Notes: generated by a model not told the origin, from the sequence alone. A stretch of 64,000 bases of DNA from an uncultured Bacilli bacterium (GCA_947632085.1 CANRNY010000002.1:14151-78150), one strand, 5' to 3'. Shown: positions 30,187 through 52,157, counted from the stretch's first letter. A program made the numbers and translations.

Positions 30187-33100
30187 ATGAATCCATTTTT
30201 TCGTAATATATTAAGAATAAATCCTCAAGCATTAAACGGAATACCTGAAAGATTTATTACTGAAGATGATGTTAAAACAGCAGTAAAAAGAGGCTACAAG
30301 GTTGATAGTCAAACACCTATTTACTTATTAAAATATATAGATATAGCTAGATTATATATGACATTACTTGAAAATGGAAAAACAGTAACTGGAGAGGAAA
30401 TAGTTTTATTAATTCAACATGATGAATTAATTGATGAATTAGTTTACTTTATAAATGTCGATGATTATAATGAAGAACAAAAAAAGATTATTTTTGATGT
30501 TCTTAGAAAAAACTTAGATTCATTATTTTATGGAAGGAATGACCTATTATATAGAGAAGAATTAATATATGATTATTTAGAACAAAACCCTTTCTTTTTA
30601 AATAATCCTTATCTTCTTGATAGAATTAAAGATTATGATAGATTCTATGAAATTATTAAAAAGACTTCTAGTTCATATAACTTAAATAATATGAATTTAG
30701 GATTATTTAAAGTTTGGTATAAAAATGATCCTTCGATTTTATTTTCTAGGGATTTACCTTATAAAATAAGAACTAATCCTGAAGTTATTGAAATGTTAAA
30801 AGAATCATATGAAGCACATACTTTAGATTTAATACAATTAAAAAATTCAGAAATGATAAAATTAAAAGAAGTATATACTTATCTTTTAAAAAAAGATATA
30901 GCAAATATTCAGTATTTACCTTATTTTGGATACAATCAAGATTGTTTTGATTTTTTCTTAGATTTGATACTTAATAATTTTGAAGAAAATATTAAATATT
31001 TAGCAGATATTAGTAAAATAGTAACAGGAGATCCTAGTGTAGATAAAAAAAATAGACTTATAAAAGCTATATTAGATAATAATATTGTAGTTAAGGATTG
31101 TTCGTGGTCTTTTTTGGCAGATAATGCTGATATTGTTTATAATTCATTTATTAATGACCCATCATCTATTAATAATTTGAATTCACATTATTTTGGTGAT
31201 AGAGAATTAACTCAAGAAGAAATTGATAATATAGCAAGGATTATTGTAGAACAGAAGATAGTTGTTAATAAATATAATCCTTTTATTAGTCGTTATCCTG
31301 AAATATTAAAGGCGGCTTTAAGTGTTAATCCATATTTAATTGATGATCGGGAAAAGAATATTACTGGTGTTGATTTACGTGAATTAATTAATTATGGTTA
31401 TGAAATAAATATTTCGTCACCATCATTTGTTTTCTATTCTTCTTTTGATAATTTTGATTTTGTTTTAGATGCTATAAATCGAGATTTAAGTTTGTTGAAT
31501 AATCCTTCTTTTAATATTGTTATGCCGACAGAAGAAAAAATATTAAAAGTATATAACGTATTAAAAGCTCATAATTATAAATTAACTTTAACTTCACCTA
31601 AATGCTTATTTAATAATCCTTTATTAGTATTAGATGGATTAGAAGAAAAAAATATTGATTTAAATGATATTGGTAGTAGTGTTATAAATCAAACAAATAA
31701 ATATAGTGAAGTATTAAAACAATATATATTAAATCATTATAGTTTAGAAGAAATAGAAAATATTCTAGGATATACTTATTATTTTGATGAAAAAGATTAT
31801 AACTATGAAGAGAAGATGCAAGTTAATGATATATTGATGGATTTGAAAAAGGATTTTGTTAATTGTGAAATATATAATAGTAAAATTGATTTGAGTTTGG
31901 AAGTCCAAAAACAAATTAGTGATTTATATTTTGCTAATTATGAAGAAAATAAAAAGTTTTATGGGTCAACACCATTGGTAGATAATAATCCATATATTAA
32001 TACTTATGAATGTTTATATCATCATCGTCCAATGCGTAATGTAGATTGCCTAAAAAATACGGAGTTAGCTTCTTTCTTTAAAGAAAATTATCAAAAAGAA
32101 GGAGTTGAAATTACTGGTAATTTAATAAAACTATTTATTAATGATCCAGCATTAGCTGATTTGATAAGACAATATCCAGAGAGAATTGAATCTTGGGCAT
32201 CTCGTTTAAGTTACAATATTAATCAAAATTTTATCACTGAAGTATGTGAGCAATTAAAAAATGGTACTTATGTTGTTTCAAGGAGTATAAATGATGATTT
32301 GGCAAAGGCTATTTTTGATTTTGCATGGGAAAATAATGTACCTAATATTGGATATATTCTTAGAAGAGTAATGGATGAATATTATGGATATGGACGTGAT
32401 TATACAAATTATGTTTATGAAGCTTTAATTAGTGGTAGAGCAAATATGTATGAAATAGGAGAAGATAATTGTTTGAAGTTAAGTGAAGAACAATTACTTG
32501 CGATATTAAAAGCTCAACCAAATAATATTGTTAATATGCGTCGTTCTTTTAATCCTAAAATGAGGGAATTTATTAGTAGACCTGAAATTCAAGAAATATA
32601 TACGAATGCTATTAATAACTTAGAACTATATGATGGAAAAAGAAATTATTCTTTGGATGAATTATTCACTTTAGCTAAAAGTAATCCTAATATCTTTTTA
32701 AGAGAAAAATATTATAAGACTTATACTTTGCTTCAAGGAGAATTATTTAATAGAATTCATAATGTTATTGTTGACGCTTATAAAAATCATAAAATTACGT
32801 TAAATGTTGATTTGGAAAAATGTATAATTGTTACACATAGTACAGCAGATAAAATTGATGACGAATTTATGAATTATTTATTAGAACATGATTTGGTAGA
32901 TTATATATGTTGTTTAAATGAAGGGATGCCTAATGAGTATCTTGATAAATTATATAAAAAGTTTGCTTCATATGACTCTTTAAATAGAAAATTGGATGTT
33001 ATTAATAATATGCCAAAGAATAAAGCTTTTTATTTACCAATATATAAAGAATTATTAAGACAAAGTTTAGGTAAAAAAGAATTAGTTAATTGTACGAAAA

Positions 33101-36100
33101 ATAATATTTTTACACCTTCAGAAGTATATAATATATGGGTAGAAGCTGGACGTCCTTTAAGTTTTTATGATGGTGAAAATGATATTATTACTAATAAACA
33201 AATAATATTAGATGCTTTAAAAATGGATATTAATAATTATCAGTATTTTTTATATAGTCCTGATTTATCTAATCGAGATTTGGCTTTTGAAGAAGAAGTA
33301 TTTAATTTGTATAAAGTACATAGTTATGATATTTCACCTTATTCTTCTAATATCTTTTATAACAATTCATTTATTATGAAGTATATGGGATTAGAAGATA
33401 AAATTGTTATTACAGAAGATAATATGAATTTATACTATGATAAATATCATTGGGATTTGCCTTTAGAAATAATGATAGAATCAGTAAAGAACTATAAATA
33501 TTCTTTAAATAAAATAGTATTTTTTAGAAATTATTCAGAGTTATTTAATTATTTAAAAAGTACTAATTTTGTTCTAGATGAAAAATATGATGCTTCAGTA
33601 GCAGCAAACTATGAGTTTGTGACTATTTCAGCTGAAAATAATTTAAAACAAACTATAGAAGTTGTTGGTAAATATAAAGTAGAAGCAGATAGTAAAATAG
33701 TAAAATATTTAATAGAGAAAGCTATAAATAATAATTATTTAGTTAATAGTAAAACACCAAAGGTATTCTTAAAAAATAAAGATTTGTTATATCATTCAAT
33801 TAAAACAGATCCAAAATTAATCGTTTATTTTGATAAAAACATTGAATTTGATGAACAAGAAAAACAAGAAATTAGAGAATTACTAATAAAAAATAAAATA
33901 TGTTATTATTATGGAATATTTAAATTCTTAGAAGATGATTATGAGTATGTCAAATTTAGTGTTATGAATAATCCATCTTCAATAGAAGTAATTAATGAAG
34001 CTTGCTTTACGACAGTAGAGAAAAATGAATTAATGAAAATAATTAAAGATAAAATAAGAGATAGTAGTTATAAAATAAATTATAATATGCCAACTTGGTT
34101 ATTTTATGATTATGAATTATTGGCGATGGCTCGTAAAGAGTTACCATTAATAGGAAAAGATATTCCAGGATTTGATTATTTATTAGAAGATTATAAATTA
34201 TTATACGAAAAAGGTATTACAATCGATAATAATCCATATACAATATTAAATAATATTATAAATAATATAGAGTTAGTTGATGTTTTACAAATAAATCCTA
34301 ATATAGTTTATCCTGAAGAATTATTTAATCAATTAGTTGATAAGTTAATAGCAAGTCATTATGAAATAAATGAAAAAACACCAAATATTCTTTTCAATAG
34401 TGGAGAATTTATTATTTATGCTTTAGAAAATAATATGAAGATAGATGATAAATATATTGAAAGATTTTTGAATATAGAAAATTTATATAAATATAAAAAG
34501 TTTGATTTAGCTAAAAAATATTGTCAAATGGGTTATGGAATTAAATATAAAAATATGTTTGATAAATTTGGTTTAGATGAAACTTTAAAATTAGCAATAA
34601 AATATGGTTATTTATTAAATACATTAAATTTAAACGAGAATTATGATATAGATAAATTAGATGAATATTTCTTAAAGACAGCTGGATATGGTGATTTAGT
34701 TGATGTCTTAATTAGAATTAATTATCCATTAAGTGATGAAGAAATTAAAGAAGGCAAAATAAATCTTATTGGAAGACATTTTGTTTTATCTGAGAATGAC
34801 ATGTTGTTTAATTATTTAATTCCGAAGGACCCTAATAAAATTATGTTATATACTGGACGTAATAATAAATTATATATATTGGCAATTAAATGTGGTTTTG
34901 AACTAACTTTAGAAAAATATATAAAATGTGATAATTTTAGAACTAATGATTATTATACTTCATTAATTTTAGATACTGATTGTAATGCAATTAAATATTA
35001 TCGCGGTTCTAATAGTGAATTATATAAAAAAGCAATTGCTAAAGGTTATAAGATAAATGAACAAGATTTTATAGATTTTCCATATCTTTGTGATACATAC
35101 TTATTAGAATATGCAATTAATACTGATGATGTAAGTAAATATATTATGTATTATAAAGGTCATGATGAGGAGTTATTTAAAAAAGCAATTGCAAATGGTT
35201 ATGTACCAACGATTGATATTTTAAATAAGAAAGATAATTTCTGTGCTAGTTCTGCTATTATTCATCGAGTGATGCAAGATGATATAAAAGCAATTAAATA
35301 TTATAAAGGTAGTGCAGAGTATTTTACTGATTTATTTGATATAGAAGATAAAAATGGTAATAAAATTGTTCCTGATAGAGAAATGATGAAGGATTTAGCT
35401 TTTATCTATGGTAATGATGAATTAATGAAAAAAGCTATTTTATATGATTGTAATAATATTGTATTTTATCAAGGGAATGAGGAAGAATTATTTAACTTAG
35501 CAATAAATGGTGGTTATATACCTAAGAAAGAAGATTTTGAACTTACTGATAATTTAAATGATAAAAATATAATATTTAAAAAGATTTTAGAATTAGGTCT
35601 TATTGATTTATTATTATATTATACAGGTAATGATGAAGAAATTATAAAGGGAATATATAGAGATTTGTTAAGTGATCAATATGATTTAGTTATTAGGAAT
35701 AATGATGATTTAACTAATTATATTGCAGTATGGCAATCATTTAATAGTAGTACTAATCATGAAAGATTAATTACTTATATGAATCCAAAAAATATAAAAG
35801 CATTTGAAAAAATGCCAATAGATTATTATCTAGTTTTAAAATATGGTATTGGTAATTCAAAGATGGATTTTCTTATTCAAATAATTAAAGATGGTCAAAT
35901 AGATAATTTTGCTAATATTTATTCTTATTTAATAAAAAATTATTTAGAACTTAATAATAATGCTTTTGGAGTTGATTTATTTTTAAAGATAGCTCGTTTA
36001 TATGTAACATATCCTAATTTATTAGGTAATATTCTTGATAGGAAATTAAATGATATTGAAGTAGCTAATTTAATTAAACTTATTAATAGTGAGGTAAAAA

Positions 36101-38205
36101 TAAGTGAAGTTAATAGCTTAGAAGATTTGGCAAAATTAGATGAAACTTTAATTGCGACTATTAAATATAATTTAGATTTTTGTAAAGATCCAAAAGAAAT
36201 TAAAAATATGATACTACAATATGTTTTTAATATTGATTATGATGAATTTATGCATATTTTAACTAATTATATTAATTTTGATACTTTGGACAAAATTATT
36301 AGTAAAGCAGAAAAATTAAAAAATCAAGAAGAATTAATGTATGAAGCTTCAATATTAAAGATATTATTAAAAATGTTAGAAGAGACAGTTAATGCGACGA
36401 ATGATATAGAATCATTAAAAGCATTATTAAGAAATTATTTAAATAATCAAGAATTAGTAAATAAAGTAAGGCCTTTATATTATGATTTAAAAGAAAGAAT
36501 AAGAAATATATATGAGTTAGATGCTAATGCTACTTTAACAGATTTAAGTGATTATACCCCTAATGAAAATGGTGTTATTGATTTACAAAACTCAGAATAT
36601 ACTATTTATGCACATGTTATGGGTGGGGATAATTTTGCTGATTATGTTAAATATCGTTTTAATGGTAAAGTAACAATATGTGTTTCACCAATAAGTAATT
36701 TAGGTAAGAAATTATATTCTAATTCAGGAGTTATTTTAGGATTTGTAAATATTCCTCGTGGAGGATTTATTGGTTCATCTAATCGTAATATGGGTAGTAA
36801 TGGTTATATTAATAATAATGATTATCAAGTTCATAATGATCACTTTTATCATTTAGAAATTAAAGATAGTAGTTCTTTAACACCTAAAGAACATCCAGAA
36901 ACTTTATTATATCGTGATGGTTTATTACCTGGTTGTATTATTATTAGAGGTGATATACCTAGTCAAGAAGAAAAGGCAGCACAGCAAGCCTTTAGAGATT
37001 TAGGATTAGAAATTCCTTTTGTTCATACGCAAGCGATTGGTAATGTAGCTGAATTAAAAGGCAAAGATATGACAATTGTTGATCCACAAGAAGATGTTGA
37101 TAAACATATTTATGTAGAACAAAATATTGAACTTGGAGAATATGAAGCTAAACTAGATAAAATTAAGAAAGTACGAGAAAAAGTATTAGAATTAAAAGAA
37201 CATGTTGAAGGTTTAGGAATAAAACAAGAAGAAATATATGATTTAATACCAATGAAAATTGGTGGTTCGCATGATATGTTTAAATGTCATATTAAAGGTA
37301 AAGATGGAATATTCTATTTAAAACCTGGTTATCGTAAAGGAAGAGGAGATATTGATCCATATCGTTCTTATGCGATGGAAGCTGGTTATCGTATTCAATC
37401 AATTGTTAATCCAGAAGGAGCAGTATATGTTGATACAGTAATGGTTTCTTCAGAAAGTCTTGGATATAGTAGTACACAAGAAGATATATTGTGTTCAGTA
37501 ATTGAAGTTAAACAAGATACGACGAGTTATGATGGTTGGGCGACTAGTAGAGTTGAGTATTCTGAATTATCAGAAAAAGAAATGTCATCATTTATGCAAG
37601 AATTTATTAGTGATTATTTGTTATTTAGTTATGATACTAAGCCAGAGAATTTCCTAAAGGATAAAAATGGAAATACATTTGGTATTGATAAAGAACAAGC
37701 ACTAAAATTTATTCTTCATCCATTATTTGCCCAAAGAGATAATGATAACAATTTAACATTTAATACTTCTTTTGCCGATTCTACTTCTTCAAAAGCCGAT
37801 TTTAATGGTTGTGGTATAATTTATATTAAGATTTTTGATGCTGTTAAAGAAGGAAAACAAAAAATAACAGAAGAAAATGTTAATAAGGCGATGGCAGCGA
37901 TAAATCGAGTTGAAGCTATGTCTGATGAAGAATATAAACAAATTTTTAAAAACTATGTTGATGATTTTGCTAAAAGCTCAGTTGTTTCTAGTATAGTTAA
38001 TAGTTATAAAAATGCAGGATATTCAGATAAAGATGCCATAGCAGCGGTTAAAAATGAATTATATGAATCACTTTTAGCAAGAAAAAATAATTTACGTACA
38101 GAGTTTACATTATATATTAATAATGTTTTATCAACTTATTATTCTAAGATAGGGGAGGAAGTTCCAGAATGGGTAACGAATTTGAGTCAAGAAAAGAAGA
38201 TTTAA
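30187..38205 (+). CDS. Giant (2672 aa) non-secreted repeat protein with C-terminal atypical protein-kinase-like domain
   Basis: Uninterrupted 8-kb ORF with no signal peptide or TM. About 2100 aa of degenerate helical repeats (DUF4116-like pattern 'h..A+..nP..h..h'), an unassigned globular segment, then 'GGSHDMFKCHIKGKDGIFYLKPG ... SYDTKPENFL ... GIDKEQ', a kinase-like core. Confidence 0.85.
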   Translation: MNPFFRNILRINPQALNGIPERFITEDDVKTAVKRGYKVDSQTPIYLLKYIDIARLYMTLLENGKTVTGEEIVLLIQHDELIDELVYFINVDDYNEEQKKIIFDVLRKNLDSLFYGRNDLLYREELIYDYLEQNPFFLNNPYLLDRIKDYDRFYEIIKKTSSSYNLNNMNLGLFKVWYKNDPSILFSRDLPYKIRTNPEVIEMLKESYEAHTLDLIQLKNSEMIKLKEVYTYLLKKDIANIQYLPYFGYNQDCFDFFLDLILNNFEENIKYLADISKIVTGDPSVDKKNRLIKAILDNNIVVKDCSWSFLADNADIVYNSFINDPSSINNLNSHYFGDRELTQEEIDNIARIIVEQKIVVNKYNPFISRYPEILKAALSVNPYLIDDREKNITGVDLRELINYGYEINISSPSFVFYSSFDNFDFVLDAINRDLSLLNNPSFNIVMPTEEKILKVYNVLKAHNYKLTLTSPKCLFNNPLLVLDGLEEKNIDLNDIGSSVINQTNKYSEVLKQYILNHYSLEEIENILGYTYYFDEKDYNYEEKMQVNDILMDLKKDFVNCEIYNSKIDLSLEVQKQISDLYFANYEENKKFYGSTPLVDNNPYINTYECLYHHRPMRNVDCLKNTELASFFKENYQKEGVEITGNLIKLFINDPALADLIRQYPERIESWASRLSYNINQNFITEVCEQLKNGTYVVSRSINDDLAKAIFDFAWENNVPNIGYILRRVMDEYYGYGRDYTNYVYEALISGRANMYEIGEDNCLKLSEEQLLAILKAQPNNIVNMRRSFNPKMREFISRPEIQEIYTNAINNLELYDGKRNYSLDELFTLAKSNPNIFLREKYYKTYTLLQGELFNRIHNVIVDAYKNHKITLNVDLEKCIIVTHSTADKIDDEFMNYLLEHDLVDYICCLNEGMPNEYLDKLYKKFASYDSLNRKLDVINNMPKNKAFYLPIYKELLRQSLGKKELVNCTKNNIFTPSEVYNIWVEAGRPLSFYDGENDIITNKQIILDALKMDINNYQYFLYSPDLSNRDLAFEEEVFNLYKVHSYDISPYSSNIFYNNSFIMKYMGLEDKIVITEDNMNLYYDKYHWDLPLEIMIESVKNYKYSLNKIVFFRNYSELFNYLKSTNFVLDEKYDASVAANYEFVTISAENNLKQTIEVVGKYKVEADSKIVKYLIEKAINNNYLVNSKTPKVFLKNKDLLYHSIKTDPKLIVYFDKNIEFDEQEKQEIRELLIKNKICYYYGIFKFLEDDYEYVKFSVMNNPSSIEVINEACFTTVEKNELMKIIKDKIRDSSYKINYNMPTWLFYDYELLAMARKELPLIGKDIPGFDYLLEDYKLLYEKGITIDNNPYTILNNIINNIELVDVLQINPNIVYPEELFNQLVDKLIASHYEINEKTPNILFNSGEFIIYALENNMKIDDKYIERFLNIENLYKYKKFDLAKKYCQMGYGIKYKNMFDKFGLDETLKLAIKYGYLLNTLNLNENYDIDKLDEYFLKTAGYGDLVDVLIRINYPLSDEEIKEGKINLIGRHFVLSENDMLFNYLIPKDPNKIMLYTGRNNKLYILAIKCGFELTLEKYIKCDNFRTNDYYTSLILDTDCNAIKYYRGSNSELYKKAIAKGYKINEQDFIDFPYLCDTYLLEYAINTDDVSKYIMYYKGHDEELFKKAIANGYVPTIDILNKKDNFCASSAIIHRVMQDDIKAIKYYKGSAEYFTDLFDIEDKNGNKIVPDREMMKDLAFIYGNDELMKKAILYDCNNIVFYQGNEEELFNLAINGGYIPKKEDFELTDNLNDKNIIFKKILELGLIDLLLYYTGNDEEIIKGIYRDLLSDQYDLVIRNNDDLTNYIAVWQSFNSSTNHERLITYMNPKNIKAFEKMPIDYYLVLKYGIGNSKMDFLIQIIKDGQIDNFANIYSYLIKNYLELNNNAFGVDLFLKIARLYVTYPNLLGNILDRKLNDIEVANLIKLINSEVKISEVNSLEDLAKLDETLIATIKYNLDFCKDPKEIKNMILQYVFNIDYDEFMHILTNYINFDTLDKIISKAEKLKNQEELMYEASILKILLKMLEETVNATNDIESLKALLRNYLNNQELVNKVRPLYYDLKERIRNIYELDANATLTDLSDYTPNENGVIDLQNSEYTIYAHVMGGDNFADYVKYRFNGKVTICVSPISNLGKKLYSNSGVILGFVNIPRGGFIGSSNRNMGSNGYINNNDYQVHNDHFYHLEIKDSSSLTPKEHPETLLYRDGLLPGCIIIRGDIPSQEEKAAQQAFRDLGLEIPFVHTQAIGNVAELKGKDMTIVDPQEDVDKHIYVEQNIELGEYEAKLDKIKKVREKVLELKEHVEGLGIKQEEIYDLIPMKIGGSHDMFKCHIKGKDGIFYLKPGYRKGRGDIDPYRSYAMEAGYRIQSIVNPEGAVYVDTVMVSSESLGYSSTQEDILCSVIEVKQDTTSYDGWATSRVEYSELSEKEMSSFMQEFISDYLLFSYDTKPENFLKDKNGNTFGIDKEQALKFILHPLFAQRDNDNNLTFNTSFADSTSSKADFNGCGIIYIKIFDAVKEGKQKITEENVNKAMAAINRVEAMSDEEYKQIFKNYVDDFAKSSVVSSIVNSYKNAGYSDKDAIAAVKNELYESLLARKNNLRTEFTLYINNVLSTYYSKIGEEVPEWVTNLSQEKKI
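34804..35665 (+). repeat. Six tandem ~49-aa protein repeats inside the giant ORF
   Basis: Recurring '(I/L)xYYxGxxEELFxxAIxxGY' units: IMLYTGRNNKLYILAIKCGF, IKYYRGSNSELYKKAIAKGY, IMYYKGHDEELFKKAIANGY, IKYYKGSAEYF, IVFYQGNEEELFNLAINGGY, LLYYTGNDEEIIKGIY. DNA-level similarity is visible (35021-35056 versus 35171-35206). Confidence 0.8.
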
Positions 38206-39099: not shown

Positions 39100-40425
39100 A
39101 TGAAAAAGACTGTTTGTTTAATTGGTAGACCTAATGTAGGTAAAAGTACAATCTTTAATCGTTTAATTAAAGAAAACAAAGCTATTATTTTGGATACACC
39201 TGGAGTAACTAGAGATCGTATTTATGGTGATGTTACGTATGATGAAAAAACATTTTTATTAGTTGATACAGGTGGTATAGATTTAGGCGAAGGGGACTTT
39301 AATAAAGATATTAGATTACAAGCTGAGATAGCTATAGAAGAATCTGATGTAATAGTATTTGTTGTTGATGGTCGAGAAGATTTAACAAGTAATGATTTAT
39401 TTATTCGTGATATGTTAATGAAAACTAATAAAAAAGTTATTGTAGCTTTAAATAAATTAGATAATTTTAAATTACAAGAAGAAAGAATATATTACTATTA
39501 TGAATTAGGTTTTCAATATGTAATACCAATATCTGCTTCTCATAATTTAGGTTTTGGCGAATTATTAGATGAAATAACTAAGGATTTTAAAGAAAATAGT
39601 GATGAACCAGAAAATATCTTAAAATTTTGTATTATTGGCAGACCTAATGTTGGCAAAAGTAGTTTGGTTAATGCCATATTAAATGAAGAAAGAGCTATTG
39701 TTTCTGATGTTGCAGGTACAACTAGAGATTCTGTTGATACAAGATTTAAATATAATAATGAAGATTATATCGTCATAGATACAGCAGGAATGCGTAAACA
39801 AGGAAAGATATATGAATCAGTTGAAAAATATAGTTTACTTAGAAGTTTAAAAGCAATTGATCGTGCTGATGTTTGTGTATTAGTAATAGATGCCCAAGAA
39901 GGAATTATTGAACATGATAAACATATAGCTAGTTATGCGATTGAAGCTGGTAAAGGATTAGTTTTAGTTGTTAATAAATGGGATACGATTGAAAATAAAG
40001 ATCAAGCGATAAAAGAATGGAAAGTTCTTTTAAAAAATGAATTTCAATTTATGACATATGCTAAAGTTGTTTTCTTATCAGCATTAACGAAAAAAAGATT
40101 ACATACTTTAATGCCAGAAATATTAAGTGCTTATGAAAATAATCATCGTGAAGTTAAAACATCACTTTTAAATAATGTAATAAATGATGCAACTAAATTA
40201 CATGAAGCACCTGGTTATAAAGGTCGTAAATTAAAAATTTATTTCAGTAGTCAAACAGGTATATGTCCTCCTAAATTTACTTTTAGATGTAATGATAAAG
40301 GATTAGTTCATTTTAGTTATGAAAGATATTTAGAAAACACAATTAGAAATAATTTTGATTTTACGGGAACACCAATTGTTTTACAATTTAAAAATAGAGG
40401 TAGTAAAGATGAAGATGATGAATAA
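39100..40425 (+). CDS. der: Ribosome biogenesis GTPase Der/EngA
   Basis: Two GTPase domains ('GRPNVGKSTIFN', 'GRPNVGKSSLVN', 'DTGG', 'DTAG', 'NKLD', 'NKWD') plus a C-terminal KH-like domain. Confidence 0.95.
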   Translation: MKKTVCLIGRPNVGKSTIFNRLIKENKAIILDTPGVTRDRIYGDVTYDEKTFLLVDTGGIDLGEGDFNKDIRLQAEIAIEESDVIVFVVDGREDLTSNDLFIRDMLMKTNKKVIVALNKLDNFKLQEERIYYYYELGFQYVIPISASHNLGFGELLDEITKDFKENSDEPENILKFCIIGRPNVGKSSLVNAILNEERAIVSDVAGTTRDSVDTRFKYNNEDYIVIDTAGMRKQGKIYESVEKYSLLRSLKAIDRADVCVLVIDAQEGIIEHDKHIASYAIEAGKGLVLVVNKWDTIENKDQAIKEWKVLLKNEFQFMTYAKVVFLSALTKKRLHTLMPEILSAYENNHREVKTSLLNNVINDATKLHEAPGYKGRKLKIYFSSQTGICPPKFTFRCNDKGLVHFSYERYLENTIRNNFDFTGTPIVLQFKNRGSKDEDDE

Positions 40426-40470: not shown

Positions 40471-42345
40471 ATGGCAAATACAGTATTAGGATATAAATTT
40501 GAAATGTGTAATCCTAAAATATTAACTATTCCTTATATAAAGGAACATATAGATGAACTAGATATAAAAGAGATAACTTTAGATGGTTGTACTTTAATTA
40601 ATGAAAATAAATTTATATATTCAGATTATGAACATCCGATAGTTTTAGTAGATGCGATATTATCAACTAAAACTCTTAGTATAGATTCAAAATATTATAT
40701 GGAACATAAAGAAGAAATAGATGAATTAATTGCCTTTATTTGTCAGCATATAAAAGGGGACTTTTTATCTCTGGCTGATAAACCATTAGTTAATGATAAT
40801 GTTTATGAAGCGATAGGAAGTAATCCTAATATAAAGAAATTAAGAGTTGGAAATATGAATGATCCAGTTTCATTGACATTAAATGGATATAATTCGTTAA
40901 AAAAAGGGAATATAGAAGAAGTAAGAAGTTATGGCATATGTGAAGAACTTAAGGAAAATTTTGATCCTATTATTCTATATAATAGAAGAGAATTAGCTGG
41001 TCGTTATACTTATAATGCCTTACAAAGTAGTGATTCATTTTTGTTTAGTAAATCTTTATCTGAAGATGAATTATATTATTTAAAGTTTATTAATAAAAAA
41101 GCTAGTATTTCAATTCAATCATATGATTATGCTAATTATTTTAAAATGGTTAAAAGATTAAAAGAAGTTAACTATGAAGGACCTATTAGTTTGTATGTTA
41201 ATAATAAAAATGAACTTAATAATTATATATTTACTCATTTAGAGGAATTAACTGGTTTAGATAATATTTTTATTAAATCACAAACTTATATTGGTTTAGA
41301 TTGTGATATTTTAACATATATAAAAAATGAAAAAAGACTTATTGATATGGTAATGCCGGCGATTAATTATAGTCCTTTTGAAAAATATTTATATGCTTAT
41401 AATATTGTTAAACACTTTAAGAAATATAAAGAAAGTGAAGATAAATCTAAGGCCCGAAATTTGTATCAGTTATTAGATAGTGATTATATGGTATGTGTAG
41501 GTTTTGCAAGATTACTGGGAGATTTATTAGAAAAATTAGGAATTCCTAGTATAGATTATTCAGTATCGGTTGATGTAGGATTAGATGATGTTGATTCAAA
41601 GGCTTTAGTAGTACCAGATAAAGTAGTTTCAAGAGTTAATGGTCAAGAACATGAAGTCTTACTAAAAAAAGAAAGTCACGCTCGTTTGATGGTTAATTTA
41701 GTTGATAGTAAGTATGGAATAGATGGTTATTTTATAACTGATCCAACGTGGGATAATAATATGGAACTTGATACTTATAATTATGCGTTAATGACGCAAG
41801 ATGAATATATAGGTATTTATCGTTATGATAGTTTAAATTATTTTAGTGTTGATGAGTTATTTTTTGCTCATAGCTTAGAAGAGTTTTATTTAAAAATTAA
41901 TTTCTTATTAGATAAGAATAAAAGACAAAGTGAAAAAGATATTATAAGAAATTTATTAAATAAATTTAAAAAGATAGATAGTGAATTTTATGAAGAATTA
42001 ATTAGTAAATATGAGGGATTAGATAAGTATAGTTTTACATTTACAAAAGAATTAATTCAAGATATTCTTTTAGATATGGGTGAACATATTTTATTAAAAA
42101 CAAATAAGATGGTTAGTGGTAAAACATTTAAAGAAGGTATAAGGAATTACTATGAAAAAGTAGATGGTTTAAATGGAGAAGAATTAGAACAAAAAGTTAA
42201 TGAAGTAATGAGGGAGAATGAAAGGCTACAAGCAATTAATTTCCCAACAAGATATAAAATAGAGCGTGATAATGAAAAAATGGTTATTTTAAATGAAACT
42301 AATAAATTTACTTTAGATAGTGAAGAAGAGGGCTTAAAAATGTAA
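40471..42345 (+). CDS. Cytoplasmic transglutaminase-like (papain-fold) domain protein
   Basis: Core triad pattern: 'YMVCVGFARLLGDLLEKLGIPS' (Cys342), 'ESHARLMVNL' (His403), 'YFITDPTWD' (Asp424). No TM. The N-terminal 330 aa are unassigned. Confidence 0.65.
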   Translation: MANTVLGYKFEMCNPKILTIPYIKEHIDELDIKEITLDGCTLINENKFIYSDYEHPIVLVDAILSTKTLSIDSKYYMEHKEEIDELIAFICQHIKGDFLSLADKPLVNDNVYEAIGSNPNIKKLRVGNMNDPVSLTLNGYNSLKKGNIEEVRSYGICEELKENFDPIILYNRRELAGRYTYNALQSSDSFLFSKSLSEDELYYLKFINKKASISIQSYDYANYFKMVKRLKEVNYEGPISLYVNNKNELNNYIFTHLEELTGLDNIFIKSQTYIGLDCDILTYIKNEKRLIDMVMPAINYSPFEKYLYAYNIVKHFKKYKESEDKSKARNLYQLLDSDYMVCVGFARLLGDLLEKLGIPSIDYSVSVDVGLDDVDSKALVVPDKVVSRVNGQEHEVLLKKESHARLMVNLVDSKYGIDGYFITDPTWDNNMELDTYNYALMTQDEYIGIYRYDSLNYFSVDELFFAHSLEEFYLKINFLLDKNKRQSEKDIIRNLLNKFKKIDSEFYEELISKYEGLDKYSFTFTKELIQDILLDMGEHILLKTNKMVSGKTFKEGIRNYYEKVDGLNGEELEQKVNEVMRENERLQAINFPTRYKIERDNEKMVILNETNKFTLDSEEEGLKM

Positions 42346-42356
42346 GTCCTTTTTTC

Positions 42357-42385
42357 TTGACAAAAAAATGAAATATTTATATAGT
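42357..42385 (+). promoter_or_regulatory. Candidate sigma-A promoter
   Basis: TTGACA (42357-42362), 17-nt spacer, TATAGT (42380-42385), directly upstream of the 42396 ORF. Confidence 0.45.
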
Positions 42386-42395
42386 AAATTTTACT

Positions 42396-43730
42396 ATGGG
42401 TGATGGTATGCAACTTTATGGAATGGATAGAGAACTTATTGAAATATATAATTTACGTAATATAGAATCAATTAAATTATGGGATTTAGTAAAAAATGGA
42501 ACAGGTAAATTATTAGTAATTCCAACGTTATTAGTTACTTATGATGGTGGTAAATATTTAAATATTAGTGCAAATGAAAAATATTTTAGAGTCTTTGTAC
42601 AAAAGGTTGTAGAAGTTTATCATAATGAGAAAGATAATTTATTAGAAGATGGATTAACTGATCCATTTAAATTACGTCCTAGAATAGATATAGATGAAAA
42701 AACTAAAGTAATTCTTGAAAGCGGTAGATTAGAACAGTTAAATAAAATATATAGTTTTTATGATGGTAAAGATAGTTATGATAGTAGTTTATTATTTCAA
42801 ATTGATGAGTTAAAAGCATTATTACCAATGATTAAATATCATATAAAAAGTTTTTATGGATTTACTGATCATACTATTAATTTTGATGATGGGGTTAATG
42901 GATATAGAGATAACTATAGTATAAGTGGTCAAGTTGATGGGATAGAAGTTACAATAACTTTATTGTTTAATAAAATAGATAATGATGAGTATGAAATATT
43001 TATTGGTGGACTTAATAGTAAGAATGAACCATTAAAAATGAAAATTAAATTTTATAAAGATGCCATTACAGTTGATTTGGCGATTGTAGCTTATGACTTA
43101 GTTAGTAGTCATCTTTATCATATGACTAAAGGAGCACCTAAAGTAACTTATGAAGTTAAAAAGGGTGGATTACCAGTAGTATTTGTTGATAAAGATTTAG
43201 AAAAAGTGGCAAATAACTGGGAAAATATTGCAGATATAGATTATGATAATGATTTAGTTTGGTATAAGTTACCTTGGAATGCTTTATACGGAGTAAGTAA
43301 TGAGATAAAAGAAGTTAGTGAGACTGAAAAGGTAGTAAGTACGCATAATATGTTTATTGATGTTAGTGAAGAACAATTTGTTAGAAGAGAATATTATGCT
43401 AAGACTTATATAAGAAATCGTACAGTAGCAGTTTCGGCACAAGAAATGGTAATGGATGAAGTAAGAAAAACAATTAATGGAGTATGTGTTTCAAAACATG
43501 ATGGAGTTTATGCGATTGAAACCGGTTTTGCTGATAAAGTATTGGGGAAATCTGGATTTTATGAAGAAAAATTAAAAAATCGCTATTTTTATCATTTGTG
43601 TCAAAGTAGAGAAGGAATAAAAGGAATAGTTAGAGATAACTTAAAATCAGTTTGTAAAGACGATGATATTTTACAAGCAAGTGATATGTTAAATAAAGCT
43701 AATATATTAAAGCTAGTTAAGGGTGAGTAA
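42396..43730 (+). CDS. Hypothetical protein (444 aa), no recognisable domain
   Basis: Long ORF whose stop lies 1 nt before the start of the AAA+ gene. The true start may be ATG 42408, because the predicted promoter leaves almost no leader for 42396. Confidence 0.55.
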   Translation: MGDGMQLYGMDRELIEIYNLRNIESIKLWDLVKNGTGKLLVIPTLLVTYDGGKYLNISANEKYFRVFVQKVVEVYHNEKDNLLEDGLTDPFKLRPRIDIDEKTKVILESGRLEQLNKIYSFYDGKDSYDSSLLFQIDELKALLPMIKYHIKSFYGFTDHTINFDDGVNGYRDNYSISGQVDGIEVTITLLFNKIDNDEYEIFIGGLNSKNEPLKMKIKFYKDAITVDLAIVAYDLVSSHLYHMTKGAPKVTYEVKKGGLPVVFVDKDLEKVANNWENIADIDYDNDLVWYKLPWNALYGVSNEIKEVSETEKVVSTHNMFIDVSEEQFVRREYYAKTYIRNRTVAVSAQEMVMDEVRKTINGVCVSKHDGVYAIETGFADKVLGKSGFYEEKLKNRYFYHLCQSREGIKGIVRDNLKSVCKDDDILQASDMLNKANILKLVKGE

Positions 43731-43731
43731 G

Positions 43732-46026
43732 ATGGGAATATTTAGTGAAGAAACACAGGAAGAAAAAGATTATAAAAGATTATTAAAAGTAATAAAAGGA
43801 TCAAATTTAAGTTATGAAATAATAGATAAATTAGTTAAATATGTAACTGATATTAGAGATAAAAAAAGAAATAATGATTTTTTTGATTTTGAATTTTTAG
43901 AGGGAGTTATTTTAGAAATAGCTAATTCACAATTTCAAGATAGTGATGAGTTTATAACTTTGTTTGATGAGTTATTAAAAACTATTAAGTTCTTTTTACC
44001 AGAAGGAATTGAAACACCAGATTATGAAGCAATAAAAAGAATGTATATTCATAATTTTAGTGGTAGTGAAGGTATTTTAGCGAAAGATGTTTTTGATCAA
44101 AAGTTTTTTAGTTTATTTGAATCGAGATTAGATTACTTATATATTATGAATTTAATTAGAGATGATGAAAGTTTAGTAGGTAAATATCGTAATATAGTTA
44201 ATTTTGCTTTAGAAGTGGCACCTTATTGTATTAATCAAACGGTCTTAAAAAATGAAATACTATCTTATATTAATGGTTTAAAAAATGAATTAGGCGATAT
44301 AGATACTTATAGTGATAAAAAACTTACTGAAGCTAAAAAAAGAACAGGTGTTTATCCAGTTGATGAAAAAACGTTGGCGATGATTTCAGCGGAAGCAGAG
44401 AAAGCTCAAGGATTAATTACAAAGTTAAATGTTATGCAAAAGAAAGTAGATACTTATCAAGATCGAGTTAATTCTTTAACTAAAACGGGAGTTAAAGAGA
44501 TAAAAGATTCAATAAGTTTAGGTAAGAAAGATATAAGTGATTATGCTTCGACGGCTGTATTTGATATGAAGAAAGCTATTTTAGAAGCAAAAGAGGAATT
44601 AGTTAGTAAGTTAGATGAATATTTACTAACTTTAGAAAAGTCTTTAAAAGAGAGTAGCGATGAAGTATTTAGACAGTTACTTTTAGATACAGAAGAAAAA
44701 ATTAAAGGCATAAAAGTAATGGCTCAAGGTTTATCTAGTACAACTACATCAGAATTATTACGTATTCAAAAAGCGACACAAGATAGTGTAACTAAGTTAA
44801 AGAGTTATGTTGAAACAGAACCACAATTACAAGAATTTTTAAAGAGTGCTAGTGATAATGAAAAGATAATGGAAGCTTTAAAGAAATTTAGTGAATTACA
44901 AGTGGGAGCTGCAAGTCAAGCGGTAGTAGGAGCGCCAGTAAGTGGAATAGTTATACCTGGTAATGATCGTTTAGTAGTACCTGCTAGTCCACAAGTTGTT
45001 ATTCCTAAAGAACATACTGAATCAATTATCTTACCAGCTTTTGATGAAAATATTCCATTTGATAAACGAATGGATAGAATATTAGAAGAGAAAAAACGTC
45101 GTGAAGCAAATGGCGAGTTCTTTCATGAAATGGTAGAAGAAGTTATCCGTTGTATCTTAGAAGGTGATTGGGTTTACTTATGGGGTCCATCAGGATGTGG
45201 TAAATCATTTGTTATTAAACAAGTTGCTGAATTAATAGGAATTGATTTGGTAGAAAATGGTAAAATAACGGATAAATATAGTATTATGGCTTATAACGAT
45301 CCACATGGACATTTTAGAGCAACGCAAGCTTTTGTCGCTTTAGTATATGGGAAAATGTTATCTTTAGATGAATTTGATAATGGTAATACTGATACGCAAG
45401 TTGTTTTAAATGAATTATATTCTGGTTTGTTAGATGTTTTAGGTAATCCAAATAAAAAACGTTATGTAACCTTTGCTGAAGATATGACAGTACCTATTAA
45501 TCCTAACTTTAGAATGATAAGTGCTGGTAATACGAGAGGTGGCGGAGAAAACCAAATATTCTCTTCACGTGGTAAGATAGATGAAGCTGTACAAGAACGT
45601 ATGACACCAAAAGAATTTAAGTATGATAATTTAGTTGAGCAAAAAATATTTGGACAATATAAAGACTGGTATGAAATATTTATTAAATTTAGAGAAGCTT
45701 GTGATGCTTATGCTAAGCAAAATGGTTTAGATACAGCGCCAGGAATTGGGACAACAAGAGATGCAGCAGCAATTGTTAAATATATTAATCATAATAGTAA
45801 ATCAATTGATCAAATTATGAGGGAAAAATTTACACAGACTAAAGAAAGAGATTACTTAAGTTTTTTAAGAAAGAAATTTAGAGAATTTTATGATTTAAGT
45901 GAAAATTTAGGTGATTTTGCAGTTCCAAGTAAGTTATGTGATGCTGATACAATGATTTTAGCTAAATCATTTGTTAAAGCTTGTAATGATAGTTTAGCTG
46001 GAACAGAAAAGAAAAAGGGAAGATAA
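43732..46026 (+). CDS. AAA_5 (MoxR/McrB-type) AAA+ ATPase with ~450-aa coiled-coil N-terminal region
   Basis: Walker A 'LWGPSGCGKSF', Walker B 'MLSLDEFDNG', sensor-1 'RMISAGN', 'IDEAVQERM' arginine motif. AAGGGTGAG RBS favours ATG 43732 over track GTG 43723. Confidence 0.75.
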   Translation: MGIFSEETQEEKDYKRLLKVIKGSNLSYEIIDKLVKYVTDIRDKKRNNDFFDFEFLEGVILEIANSQFQDSDEFITLFDELLKTIKFFLPEGIETPDYEAIKRMYIHNFSGSEGILAKDVFDQKFFSLFESRLDYLYIMNLIRDDESLVGKYRNIVNFALEVAPYCINQTVLKNEILSYINGLKNELGDIDTYSDKKLTEAKKRTGVYPVDEKTLAMISAEAEKAQGLITKLNVMQKKVDTYQDRVNSLTKTGVKEIKDSISLGKKDISDYASTAVFDMKKAILEAKEELVSKLDEYLLTLEKSLKESSDEVFRQLLLDTEEKIKGIKVMAQGLSSTTTSELLRIQKATQDSVTKLKSYVETEPQLQEFLKSASDNEKIMEALKKFSELQVGAASQAVVGAPVSGIVIPGNDRLVVPASPQVVIPKEHTESIILPAFDENIPFDKRMDRILEEKKRREANGEFFHEMVEEVIRCILEGDWVYLWGPSGCGKSFVIKQVAELIGIDLVENGKITDKYSIMAYNDPHGHFRATQAFVALVYGKMLSLDEFDNGNTDTQVVLNELYSGLLDVLGNPNKKRYVTFAEDMTVPINPNFRMISAGNTRGGGENQIFSSRGKIDEAVQERMTPKEFKYDNLVEQKIFGQYKDWYEIFIKFREACDAYAKQNGLDTAPGIGTTRDAAAIVKYINHNSKSIDQIMREKFTQTKERDYLSFLRKKFREFYDLSENLGDFAVPSKLCDADTMILAKSFVKACNDSLAGTEKKKGR

Positions 46027-46066
46027 GTTTGCTTATTAAAGTAGATTTAAAAAGGAGGAAACTTTA

Positions 46067-47026
46067 ATGGAAAGATATCCCCATAATTATCAAAAATATG
46101 AAGATTATATATTTCCTCCAGATGAAGTTGAAATAGATGATGAAAAATATACGATTTATAAAGCACGTTTTAATAATTTATTTGAACTTTATGATTATTT
46201 AAAAAGTAATCCTAAGACCAATAATCGGGTTTTTACAACTTTACATAGTATTTCTAAAGGTAGTGATTTTGCTGGTAAACCTTATAAAGAAGCAGTAGAA
46301 GATTTAGTTAGTGAAGTTGATCCTGGTTATGAAGAGTTTTTATCTTTACAAAGAGATTTAGATAATGCGGGATTAAAAGAAGTTCATAAATATAAATTAG
46401 TAAGAACAGTTGCAGGGGGACATTTAAATATTCCGGCTTATAGTGCGGGGAATCCTTTATGCTATGAAACGGAAGAAAAGGTAAGAAGTCCAAAGTTTGT
46501 TAGAATTCATGTTACTTTATCATATTATTGGGGGACAACTAAAAAACAAGTTTTAAATCGAGCCATAATAATTACTAATGTGTTAAAAGCGTTAGAGAAA
46601 GCAGGTTATAATGTTTTATTAAATACTTTTGAATTAAGTATGGAATATGATGAAATTGTTTATATTGTTGTTCAAATAAAGAAACATGGTGAAAGAATGA
46701 ATATGGCGGCATTATATAAAACTTTATGTCGGGTTGAGTTTTTAAGAAGAATTCTATTTAGAATACTCGAAACTTTAGATGTTAAAAGAGCTTGGGAAGA
46801 TGGATATGGTTCGACTTGTAGTGCAAACTTTACAAAAAAGGTTTTACACTTTGGATCAAACGACATCTTCTTTGATCAACCACGAGAGATGGGTATTTAT
46901 GGTGATGATTTAGCCGATGACTTTGAAGCAGCGATTAAACATTTAAATTTAGAAGATAAAATAGATGTTGAAAAAGCAAAAAAAGAGTTTAAAAAAGATG
47001 TTCAAAGTTTGAAATTAAAGAGATGA
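46067..47026 (+). CDS. Hypothetical protein (319 aa) partnered with the AAA+ ATPase
   Basis: AAAGGAGGAAAC RBS. No motif recognised with confidence. The strand-helix pattern 'FVRIHVTLSYYWGTTKKQVLNRAIIITNVLKALEKAGYNV' is vWA-like but lacks a DxSxS MIDAS motif. Confidence 0.5.
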   Translation: MERYPHNYQKYEDYIFPPDEVEIDDEKYTIYKARFNNLFELYDYLKSNPKTNNRVFTTLHSISKGSDFAGKPYKEAVEDLVSEVDPGYEEFLSLQRDLDNAGLKEVHKYKLVRTVAGGHLNIPAYSAGNPLCYETEEKVRSPKFVRIHVTLSYYWGTTKKQVLNRAIIITNVLKALEKAGYNVLLNTFELSMEYDEIVYIVVQIKKHGERMNMAALYKTLCRVEFLRRILFRILETLDVKRAWEDGYGSTCSANFTKKVLHFGSNDIFFDQPREMGIYGDDLADDFEAAIKHLNLEDKIDVEKAKKEFKKDVQSLKLKR

Positions 47027-47043
47027 TTTTTTTCATCTTTTTC
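47021..47043 (+). terminator. Rho-independent terminator
   Basis: AGATGA / TCATCT stem with a T-rich loop and trailing T-run. Confidence 0.5.
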
Positions 47044-47108
47044 TATGGAATGAATATTGTATTATATGGGATAGAGTGTTATACTTTAGGAAGATAAAGA
47101 GGTGTGAT

Positions 47109-48725
47109 ATGGAAGAGGAAAAAGTTGAAAAAAAGACGGAGACTATAAAGGAAGAAAAGAAAAGTAAAAAAGGTTTAAAGATTACTTTAACTGTTATAAG
47201 TTTAGTAGTAGTTGTAGGGTTAGTTGTTGGTTTAATAGTATTTAATAATCGTAATCCAAAGGATAAACTTGATGAAGAAAAAGAAACTATTACAGTTGAT
47301 TCTGACTATAAAATGTCAGGTAATAATGTTCAAGAGTTTGATTTATTCTTTTTGAAATCAGAAAATGAAACAAAAAATAAAGTTTATAGTCCTTTATCAA
47401 TTAAATATGCTTTAGGAATGTTAAACGAAGGAACTGATGGAGAAACTAAAGCACAAATAAGTGCAGTTATAGGGGATTATGTTGGGAAGAAATATGTTAA
47501 TAGTAAAAATATGTCTTTAGCTAATGCTTTATATATTAACGAAAGTATGCAAAATAATATTAAGACAGAATACATTAATACTTTAAAAGATAAATATAAT
47601 GCTTCAGTATTTTATGATCCATTTAAAAATCCTAATAATATTAATAAATGGGTTAGTGATAATACATATAATTTAATTCCTGATCTATTAGATGATGTTA
47701 TGGATAAAGATTTTATTTTAATAAATACTTTAGCAATAGATATGGAATGGGTTAATAAAATTCAAAGTGAAAATGAATTCTTCTCAGTAGATTATCCACA
47801 TGAAGAATACTATGTTGGAGTTGATCCTTTGAATTCTGAAGGATATTCAGAATTAAAATTTGATAATTTAAATTATAGTGTTAAATCGGTAAAAATAGCA
47901 GCTTCAGCTAATAGATATGATATAGTATCAGATTTAACAGAAAGTAGTATTAGAAATACTGTAACTAGTGAATATAATAAATTTGTTAAAAATGAGGAAT
48001 GTGGTACTCCTGGAGTAGAATATAATTATGAACCAACTAAAAGTTATGTTGATAAATATATGAAAGAAATAAATTCTAGTTATGGAAAAGTTGAAAGTTC
48101 AACAGATTTCTATTTCTATGTTGATAATGATGTTAAAGTGTTTGCTAAAGATTTAAAAGAATATGATGGTACAACCTTACAATATGTAGGTATAATGCCT
48201 ACTAGTACATCATTAGATAGTTATATAAATAATGTAAGTGCTAAACAAGTTGAAGAACTTATAGGTAAATTAAAAGATCCTAAGAAGATAGAAAGTTATA
48301 CGGATGGTAAGATAACTAAATTAACAGGTCAAATTCCAGTATTTAATTTTGATTATGAATTAAACTTAATTAATGATTTAAAAAAATTAGGTATTACTAA
48401 TGTCTTTGATGGTAGTAAAGCTGATTTATCTAAGTTAACAAGTAATAAAGGAACTTATATTGATACTGCTTTACATAAAGCTAATATAGAATTCTCTAAT
48501 ACAGGTATTAGAGCAACTGCTGCAACAGCTGTTGGTGGTTATGGAGCAGCTGATTGTGGTTTTGATTACTTATATAAAGTACCAGTTGAAGAAATTAATT
48601 TAACTTTTGATAAACCATTTATGTTCTTAATAAGAGATAAAGCAACAGGTGAAATATGGTTTACGGGTACAGTTTATGAACCTACAAAGATAACTGATTT
48701 AGATTTAAATGGACCTGAATATTAA
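47109..48725 (+). CDS. Membrane-anchored serpin (serine protease inhibitor family)
   Basis: TM 'LKITLTVISLVVVVGLVVGLIVF'. Serpin N-terminal block 'YSPLSIKYALGMLNEGTDGETKAQI', hinge-like 'SNTGIRATAATAVGG', C-terminal 'FDKPFMFLIRDKATGEIWFTGTVYEP'. AGAGGTG RBS supports ATG 47109. Confidence 0.8.
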   Translation: MEEEKVEKKTETIKEEKKSKKGLKITLTVISLVVVVGLVVGLIVFNNRNPKDKLDEEKETITVDSDYKMSGNNVQEFDLFFLKSENETKNKVYSPLSIKYALGMLNEGTDGETKAQISAVIGDYVGKKYVNSKNMSLANALYINESMQNNIKTEYINTLKDKYNASVFYDPFKNPNNINKWVSDNTYNLIPDLLDDVMDKDFILINTLAIDMEWVNKIQSENEFFSVDYPHEEYYVGVDPLNSEGYSELKFDNLNYSVKSVKIAASANRYDIVSDLTESSIRNTVTSEYNKFVKNEECGTPGVEYNYEPTKSYVDKYMKEINSSYGKVESSTDFYFYVDNDVKVFAKDLKEYDGTTLQYVGIMPTSTSLDSYINNVSAKQVEELIGKLKDPKKIESYTDGKITKLTGQIPVFNFDYELNLINDLKKLGITNVFDGSKADLSKLTSNKGTYIDTALHKANIEFSNTGIRATAATAVGGYGAADCGFDYLYKVPVEEINLTFDKPFMFLIRDKATGEIWFTGTVYEPTKITDLDLNGPEY

Positions 48726-52098: not shown

Positions 52099-52157
52099 AT
52101 ATTGTAATTCTCTATTATTTAAGTTATAATTACTAGAGAATAGGGAGTGTGGCAAGT

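Follow-up and report, generated by a model that had tools for sequence, protein, structure and literature searches.

Gene content of the locus

The present analysis concerns four co-oriented open reading frames (ORFs) on the plus strand of a contig from an uncultured Bacilli bacterium (GCA_947632085.1, CANRNY010000002.1:14151-78150), the whole 64,000-nucleotide (nt) stretch examined, with a G+C content of about 25%, being referred to hereafter as the window. The ORFs, designated genes 1 to 4, occupy positions 40471-42345 (624 amino acids, aa), 42396-43730 (444 aa), 43732-46026 (764 aa counted from the ATG, an alternative GTG start at 43723 being likewise open) and 46067-47026 (319 aa), and are flanked upstream by der (39100-40425) and downstream by a serpin gene (47076-48725, +; Pfam Serpin, E = 3.3e-48). 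The functional unit is an operon of genes 2-4, extending from a promoter-like site at 42357-42385 to a terminator near 47017-47041 and encoding a predicted AAA+ ATPase between a protein without recognisable fold and a DUF7192 protein, while gene 1 is a separate, independently distributed unit.

A first-pass annotation of the window had regarded all four genes as one uncharacterised multi-component ATPase system set among housekeeping genes. Such a system is real, although its unit comprises three genes rather than four. The layout that had been described, with four ORFs in the same orientation between der and a downstream terminator, was confirmed, as was the close packing of genes 2-4: the TAA stop codon of gene 2 (43728-43730) and the ATG of gene 3 (43732) are 1 nt apart, and gene 4 follows gene 3 after 40 nt, preceded by an AGGAGG ribosome-binding site. 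The absence of membrane segments from the four products was also upheld, no transmembrane-like hydropathy being detected in genes 1-4 with 19-residue windows (maximum 1.46, compared with 3.07 in the neighbouring serpin).

The terminators expected after der and after gene 4 both fold better than shuffled sequences. The hairpin and T-run after der reached a z-score of -3.5, and the hairpin at 47017-47041 (+; 10-bp stem followed by a T-run), which overlaps the end of gene 4, had a folding free energy of -9.6 kcal/mol and a z-score of -2.64; both went unlisted in a generic terminator scan because their stems are A+T-rich. A further terminator-like hairpin, missing from the first-pass annotation, lies at 42328-42356 (+; 9-bp stem followed by T6), overlapping the stop codon of gene 1 and separating this gene from genes 2-4 (-9.5 kcal/mol, z-score -3.28; none of 200 shuffled sequences folded as well). 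It is located directly 5' of the promoter-like sequence TTGACA-17-TATAGT (42357-42385, +), previously noted and here confirmed with 11 of 12 consensus positions directly upstream of gene 2; the promoter call rests on its position and match quality, since the scan as a whole was not enriched over shuffles. Because this hairpin and promoter lie between them, gene 1 and genes 2-4 would, judged by sequence alone, appear to be transcribed separately. The -10 element ends 10 nt ahead of the annotated ATG of gene 2, and as it crowds this codon and the family alignment opens near Met5, the true start of gene 2 is probably Met5 at 42408, preceded by GGTGATGG.

Conservation of the trio in gut Bacilli

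Related loci, numbered below with the prefix L, were gathered through exact homologue look-ups and by scanning a single genome of each GTDB species with the gene 4 alignment (38 loci from the scan), and were compared by tblastn and ORF clustering. All of them belong to metagenome-assembled genomes of uncultured gut bacteria labelled as 'Bacilli', 'Tenericutes' or Erysipelotrichaceae, one being Candidatus Coprovivens. The order gene 2, long ATPase (717-802 aa) and DUF7192 protein is strictly collinear in about 33 independent loci, and this collinearity persists down to 23-30% identity in gene 2. The spacing between the last codon of gene 2 and the first codon of gene 3 is also maintained, consisting of the stop codon plus 1 nt in 13 of the 14 loci in which it could be measured.

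The flanks of the trio fall into at least 10 different arrangements, composed mostly of housekeeping genes; neighbours include phosphoribosyl pyrophosphate synthetase, Sua5, ThiI, GatB, a GH3 glycosidase, a GGDEF protein, a DnaJ-domain protein and a zinc phospholipase C, and no defence- or phage-related neighbour was found among the sampled flanks. PADLOC returned nothing significant for any of the four proteins (two insignificant matches, to PbeC with E = 0.008 and Csm2 with E = 0.009), and NCBIfam yielded for them generic P-loop matches far below the cut-offs. With PADLOC silent and the sampled neighbours being housekeeping or metabolic, the defence-island setting considered in the first-pass annotation was not borne out.

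Additional genes accompany the trio at some loci. In the three most distant ones, a conserved gene for a helical or coiled-coil protein of 392-429 aa lies ahead of gene 2 (L041, 3549-4838; L042, 5431-6609; L043, 2268-3458); its resemblance to TelA, guessed from sequence, had no Pfam support. In L006 (1239-4455), three tandem paralogous genes (352-359 aa), whose products bear central hydrophobic segments and coiled-coil tails without significant Pfam matches, are located directly upstream of the trio.

Gene 1 and its distribution

Gene 1 is missing from more than 20 of the trio loci. It adjoins the trio in nine loci only (L010, L011, L013, L014, L017, L019, L020, L023 and L052), all of which carry der immediately upstream, and a gene 1 homologue stands between der and thrS in L049, where the trio is missing; further homologues occur without the trio in unrelated places (L048, L050, L053 and L054). 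As gene 1 and the trio can each be found without the other, it is the block of three genes that is conserved as a unit, and the adjacency of gene 1, being confined to one clade with der...thrS synteny, is ascribed to common descent. The four-gene block is thus inherited synteny within one clade: the linkage outside this genome that a single four-gene unit would entail holds tightly for genes 2-4 (about 33 loci) but fails for gene 1, which stands beside the trio only in the nine der-flanked loci.

The transglutaminase-like core previously attributed to gene 1 was confirmed by conservation. Cys342 (codon at 41494-41496, +; in VCVGFA), His403 and Asp424 (in DPTWD), which would form a catalytic-type triad, are invariant in an alignment of 36 sequences, and their contexts within the family are canonical (VCxGFA, H and DPT). 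The match of gene 1 to Pfam Transglut_core was below threshold (E = 0.25; 12.1 bits against a cut-off of 23); the same model was matched at E ≤ 0.1 by 6 of the 36 family members, with a best E-value of 8.9e-4, and was the sole Pfam family recurring among gene 1 relatives. The gene 1 family profile found no transglutaminase-like structure in the Protein Data Bank (PDB). A cytoplasmic transglutaminase/papain-like enzyme is a fair reading of these motifs. The proposed kinship with TgpA, by contrast, did not hold, since TgpA is membrane-bound and gene 1 lacks transmembrane segments.

In L050 (5596-10953), the gene 1 homologue is accompanied by two upstream paralogue-like genes, of 459 aa (with a faint Transglut_core match) and 643 aa, the whole group being located between nusG and rplK. 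In these genomes, the transglutaminase-like family seems to exist in multiple copies and to evolve fast.

The gene 3 ATPase and its N-terminal arm

Gene 3 encodes an N-terminal extension (residues 1-440; 43732-45051, +) followed by an AAA+ module (residues 441-764; 45052-46026, +). The extension, hereafter the arm, is predicted to be helical and aromatic-rich over residues 1-200 and coiled-coil-like between about 200 and 380, and ends in a Pro/Val-rich linker (385-440); these boundaries derive from composition and a crude in-house heptad heuristic, which is not a validated coiled-coil predictor. The first-pass annotation had placed about 450 aa of coiled coil ahead of the ATPase: the extension is present, but only its residues 200-380 or so are coiled-coil-like according to the heuristic. 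An arm is found wherever gene 2 is present and is absent or shorter otherwise, and the first 440 residues of gene 3 gave no match at E ≤ 0.1 in 50,697 phage genomes.

The AAA+ module matches AAA_5 over residues 482-609 (E = 2.4e-6; 28 bits against a curated cut-off of 22), in agreement with the first-pass annotation, and phrog_249 (4.7e-24). It contains a Walker A motif GPSGCGKS (45184-45207, +), a Walker B motif within LSLDEFD (45358-45378, +) and a sensor-1 Asn in ISAGNT (45517-45534, +), all of which, together with R173, R183 and R214 (alignment numbering), are invariant in 23 ATPase sequences, including those of phages. Against PDB sequences, single-sequence searches with genes 3 and 4 gave nothing useful, and the ATPase profile matched midasin (3.6e-37), CobS (1.2e-11), CbbQ (6.4e-8) and NorQ (2.4e-4), with no McrB among the 60 best-scoring sequences. 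Judging by its motifs and profile matches, gene 3 is a complete AAA+ ATPase of the midasin/CobS/CbbQ/NorQ class, not of the McrB type. Of the MoxR/McrB-type label given earlier, the MoxR-related AAA_5 grouping stands and McrB does not; the McrBC option was likewise dropped, as PADLOC also returned no McrBC-type match.

The gene 4 DUF7192 protein

Two of the four proteins had been thought to lack any recognisable domain, which holds for gene 2 but not for gene 4. The latter is a member of Pfam DUF7192 (PF23822), matched with E = 1e-19 and 71.5 bits (cut-off 27) over model positions 8-259 of 281, and of phrog_1909 (5.5e-22). Its homologues are 295-370 aa long and consist of DUF7192 alone, without fused effector domains. 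The gene is located immediately 3' of the ATPase gene in all bacterial loci and adjacent to it in phages. A full-text search found no literature mentioning DUF7192.

An AlphaFold2 model of gene 4 (predicted local distance difference test score, pLDDT, 80; predicted template modelling score, pTM, 0.75) was compared with solved structures using Foldseek, and the best of these was the VWA domain of NorD in NorQ-NorD complexes (9qh6_G; E = 2.4e-5, probability 1.0), with further fold matches to Ku, vWF-A1, TRAP and integrin I domains, although the TM-scores reached only 0.2-0.3. Among predicted viral structures, it resembled phage DUF7192 proteins with template modelling (TM) scores of 0.5-0.6, and phage CobT-like/vWA proteins with E-values from 4e-6 to 1e-3. 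The order of its secondary-structure elements from residue 143 onwards (strand, helix, hairpin, two helices and onward) agrees with the initial two-thirds of a von Willebrand A (vWA) domain, although no Pfam VWA match was obtained. At the position of the MIDAS (the metal ion-dependent adhesion site; DxSxS), located at 46514-46528 (+), gene 4 reads T150-L-S-Y-Y, and 36 homologues read x-L-S-Y-x, the first residue being T, A, S, M, N, G, L or I; because of this pattern and its variable first residue, the metal site is considered lost. Gene 4 is therefore likely, according to the model, to be a compact vWA-like domain without the MIDAS metal site. A vWA-like partner of the ATPase had been anticipated in the form of DUF58; a protein that models as vWA-like is indeed present in gene 4, but without any DUF58 match.

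Phage relatives and bacterial variants

Within the 50,697 phage genomes, 261 records were found by tblastn to contain relatives of gene 4 and 344 to contain the ATPase module, both sets being dominated by 236 Staphylococcus Kayvirus genomes. In Kayviruses, the ATPase and DUF7192 genes are adjacent and in the order of genes 3 and 4, as in phiIPLA-RODI (AJA41995/AJA41994) and also the ORF15 region of phage K; a literature search on the Kayvirus AAA family ATPase found nothing informative. Both genes are also present and adjacent in mycobacteriophages, an Enterococcus phage and Clostridium phages, the DUF7192-like gene preceding the ATPase gene in the Enterococcus and Clostridium phages. A scan of IMG/VR with the gene 4 alignment returned one distant DUF7192 match only. 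The ATPase-DUF7192 pair is an old module which is also found in tailed phages. The phage pair (phrog_249 and phrog_1909) shares with genes 3 and 4 the families, adjacency, ATPase motifs and predicted DUF7192 fold, but at 23-30% identity, and it differs in its shorter ATPases (370-470 aa), which lack the arm of about 440 residues, and in having no gene 2. Annotation of phrog_249 is 'porphyrin biosynthesis'/CobS-like.

Shorter forms also occur in bacteria. In L012 (3514-6143), a phage-like pair, consisting of a 577-aa ATPase (AAA_5, E = 2.7e-11) and a 297-aa DUF7192 protein, lies directly upstream of a full trio, so that two paralogous systems stand in tandem. In L044 (7708-10888) and L046 (7741-10888), a HExxH protein of 304-315 aa (HELGHG/HEIGHG), an ATPase of 438-441 aa and a DUF7192 protein occur without gene 2. 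This variant resembles a split CobT, a protein with an M48-peptidase-like domain at its N-terminus and a vWA domain at its C-terminus (bioRxiv 10.64898/2026.07.21.739949), the HExxH protein recalling the former and DUF7192 the latter; a further parallel is with the fusions of peptidase and vWA domains described from jumbo phages (PMC7824862).

Gene 2 and its association with the ATPase arm

Gene 2 had no match in Pfam, NCBIfam, PADLOC or PDB sequences, either singly or as a 39-sequence profile. A profile search identified 263 relatives among 1.84 billion representative proteins, all of 360-450 aa or fragments and without fusions, and tblastn against the phage genomes detected no homologue at E ≤ 0.1. 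In the AlphaFold2 model (pLDDT 84, pTM 0.79), long antiparallel strands account for about 220 residues, alongside some helices and a small N-terminal part of alpha/beta type. Compared with PDB structures, this fold gave no match with E < 1e-3 or a TM-score above 0.16; the candidates considered (JlpA, porins, FABP-like barrels, BinB and OrfX2) were weak and inconsistent, with TM-scores of at most 0.16, and were rejected. As modelled, gene 2 is a beta-rich, lineage-specific third component of about 50 kDa without recognisable fold.

Its distribution follows that of the arm. In the loci compared, gene 2 always stands directly upstream of a long-armed ATPase gene, and it never accompanies the shorter ATPases, be they from phages, the extra pair of L012, or L044 and L046. 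Across 32 loci, the mean identity to the window was 44% for gene 2 and for the N-terminal arm, compared with 58-61% for the ATPase module and gene 4. The divergence of gene 2 correlated with that of the arm (r = 0.97), and the correlation remained when the ATPase module and gene 4 were controlled for (partial r = 0.88), whereas the partial correlations of gene 2 with the ATPase module and gene 4 were -0.27 and 0.19, respectively. As it is translationally coupled to the ATPase gene, occurs only with long-armed ATPases and never with shorter ones, and co-diverges with the arm, gene 2 is the strongest candidate for a third partner, and the arm is proposed on the same grounds to bind its product.

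Other genes of the window

The serpin downstream of gene 4 (47076-48725, +; 549 aa) has an N-terminal membrane anchor at residues 38-56. Among related loci, a serpin between gene 4 and thrS occurs only in the window and L010, and is therefore regarded as an insertion that varies at this position.

About 5 kb downstream of the trio lies a type VII secretion-like locus (52149-56825, 61604-61978 and 62094-62465, +), encoding a 1558-aa FtsK/SpoIIIE-family (EssC-like) ATPase, a DUF4176 protein and a WXG100-like protein. That this locus might be connected with the trio, as the Esx-associated Esr MoxR-vWA pathway would suggest by analogy, was considered and rejected: the neighbourhood is kept only in the window, L010 and L020, and being limited to these closest relatives it is treated as coincidental.

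An ORF of 2672 aa (30187-38205, +) between glmS and engB had no Pfam match at E ≤ 0.001, and the C-terminal third of its product appears enzyme-like by eye.

Discussion

The trio probably belongs to a known kind, that of a MoxR/CobS-type motor with a vWA-type adaptor, whose motor-adaptor-effector logic is established for CobS-CobT-CobN, NorQ-NorD-NorB and CbbQ-CbbO-Rubisco. It resembles CobS-CobT-CobN in the match of its ATPase profile to CobS, its three components and its likely vWA-type adaptor, but gene 4 lacks the MIDAS, gene 2 is dissimilar to CobN and no cobalamin genes lie nearby. The NorQ-NorD and CbbQ-CbbO pairs are similar in that the NorD VWA domain is the best match of gene 4 and both CbbQ and NorQ match the ATPase profile; gene 4 is nevertheless much smaller than NorD or CbbO, lacks the MIDAS and has a low TM-score (about 0.25), and the trio occurs without nitric oxide reductase or Rubisco in its context. 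The combination of a MIDAS-less DUF7192 adaptor, a long arm and a third protein of new fold, limited to uncultured gut Bacilli, appears undescribed.

We propose that the trio is a motor-adaptor-client machine which remodels the gene 2 product in a cellular role, and put the probability of this reading at roughly 0.55. Judging by its class, the gene 3 ATPase would assemble as a hexameric ring, on which gene 4 may dock as an adaptor by analogy with CobS-CobT, NorQ-NorD and CbbQ-CbbO, while the N-terminal arm would hold the gene 2 product. ATP hydrolysis, passed on through the MIDAS-less adaptor, would then remodel, assemble or release the gene 2 protein, or whatever is attached to it. Gene 2 and the arm of about 440 residues, which co-occur and co-diverge, may represent lineage-specific gains on the old ATPase-DUF7192 module. 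A lineage-specific cellular role is more likely than phage defence, given the invariant architecture, the conserved gene 4 and ATPase and the housekeeping neighbours, together with the lack of an effector domain and of a significant PADLOC match, although this is the weakest step of the explanation.

Several points weigh against this proposal. The position of gene 2 as the client is deduced from gene order and co-variation only, and the co-variation statistic uses a single reference and ignores phylogeny. The MIDAS mediates client binding in CbbO and related adaptors, and as it is missing in gene 4, this adaptor would need another mode of action. When gene 4 is compared with solved vWA domains, the TM-scores are low (0.24-0.26; about 0.25 for NorD), which makes the vWA assignment, based on Foldseek probability and consistent matches and not on close superposition, likely rather than proven. 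Finally, the absence of the trio from the der/thrS site of L049 and the tandem pair of L012 would fit an accessory or conflict element equally well.

A role in defence is possible but unsupported. As an anti-phage or conflict system, the trio would consist of a domesticated phage MoxR-type motor and a vWA-like adaptor, with gene 2, the variable arm or both acting as a sensor or as a beta-rich, possibly membrane-active, effector; this we consider unlikely, even though the core pair is common to phages and the faster evolution of gene 2 and the arm (44% mean identity against 58-61%) would suit such a system. The trio is, moreover, a self-contained cassette with its own promoter and terminator in many contexts, is missing from the syntenic site in L049 and stands beside a paralogous pair in L012, and MoxR-vWA pairs recur as the cores of predicted, and now tested, threat-sensing systems (PMC7159879, PMC13622651). 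Those systems, namely the ternary conflict systems of the VMAP, iSTAND, FtsH and beta-propeller types (Kaur et al., 2020, PMC7159879) and the Esr pathway, a MoxR-vWA threat-sensing system (PMC13622651), share with the trio an AAA+ chaperone, a co-chaperone of vWA type (likely so in the trio) and a fast-evolving third protein. However, none of their VMAP-C, iSTAND, FtsH or beta-propeller third components is present here, gene 2 consisting mostly of long beta-strands, unlike VMAP-C (7 strands and 6-7 helices) or a P-loop, and the trio has a long ATPase arm instead of effectors fused to the vWA protein. PADLOC lacks a significant match for any of the four proteins; effector domains, be they nuclease, TIR, protease, kinase or others, were not found in them; and the flanking genes are housekeeping or metabolic rather than defence genes. 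The conservation of gene 4 and the ATPase within a fixed architecture is unlike the effector shuffling typical of conflict systems, and the hosts are reduced-genome gut Bacilli, as opposed to the multicellular taxa reported for those systems. A new class of conflict system, in which a captured motor and a MIDAS-less adaptor would restrain gene 2 on the arm and release or activate it upon infection, is a still more speculative idea to which we attach rather little weight.

It is very improbable that the trio is a prophage remnant, that is, a chaperone pair for virion assembly or host takeover accompanied by gene 2 as a phage structural protein. The pair does occur in many phages, a chaperone function in virion assembly has been suggested for the MoxR-vWA pairs of jumbo phages and Acidianus two-tailed virus (PMC7824862), and gene 2 is beta-rich. 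Nevertheless, none of the 33 or so loci has phage genes for structural proteins, integrase or lysis next to the trio, neither gene 2 nor the arm has a match in the 50,697 phage genomes and the IMG/VR scan gave its single distant match, while intact frames and motifs kept across deep divergence point to selection in the bacterial host.

The earlier reading, in which a single cytoplasmic system akin to the MoxR/DUF58/TgpA triads comprises all four genes, with gene 1 as the effector, is largely refuted by the distribution of the genes, and we see very little chance that it is correct. The genes are adjacent and co-oriented in the window and nine related loci, gene 1 has an invariant Cys-His-Asp triad and the ATPase belongs to the AAA_5/MoxR-related group, so that the window does resemble such triads in pairing a MoxR-related ATPase with a nearby transglutaminase-like protein. 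Yet gene 1 and the trio are separable both ways, their adjacency is confined to the one der...thrS clade outside which they are unlinked, and a terminator-like hairpin and a promoter lie between genes 1 and 2; with no DUF58 match, and with gene 1 being soluble and devoid of the membrane segments of TgpA, the analogy could not be sustained.

Hardly any credence is given to genes 3 and 4 as a McrBC- or CoCoNuT-like restriction module, in which a coiled-coil NTPase works with a nuclease partner, or a genuine CobS-CobT cobaltochelatase motor: AAA_5 does cover McrB, the coiled-coil extension of gene 3 is like that of CoCoNuT CnuB (PMC10542128), CobS is the best-matching bacterial enzyme (E = 1.2e-11) and PHROGs uses the label 'porphyrin biosynthesis', but the 60 best-scoring PDB sequences include no McrB structure, the model of gene 4 is vWA-like rather than that of a PD-(D/E)xK McrC, the MIDAS is missing, no CobN or cobalamin genes are located nearby and the resemblance to CobS does not extend beyond the generic AAA+ core.

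Motors of the MoxR type are found widely together with vWA adaptors, but only a handful of their clients are known, namely cobalt chelatase, nitric oxide reductase and Rubisco. Read as a motor-adaptor-client remodeller, the trio would offer a compact case, with a candidate client encoded in the same operon, an adaptor predicted to lack the MIDAS and an unusually long motor arm. It would also provide a first functional handle on DUF7192 and on the 'porphyrin biosynthesis' ATPase genes carried by therapeutic Staphylococcus Kayviruses and many other phages, through a module conserved among uncultured gut Bacilli, which are often present in the microbiomes of animals and humans.

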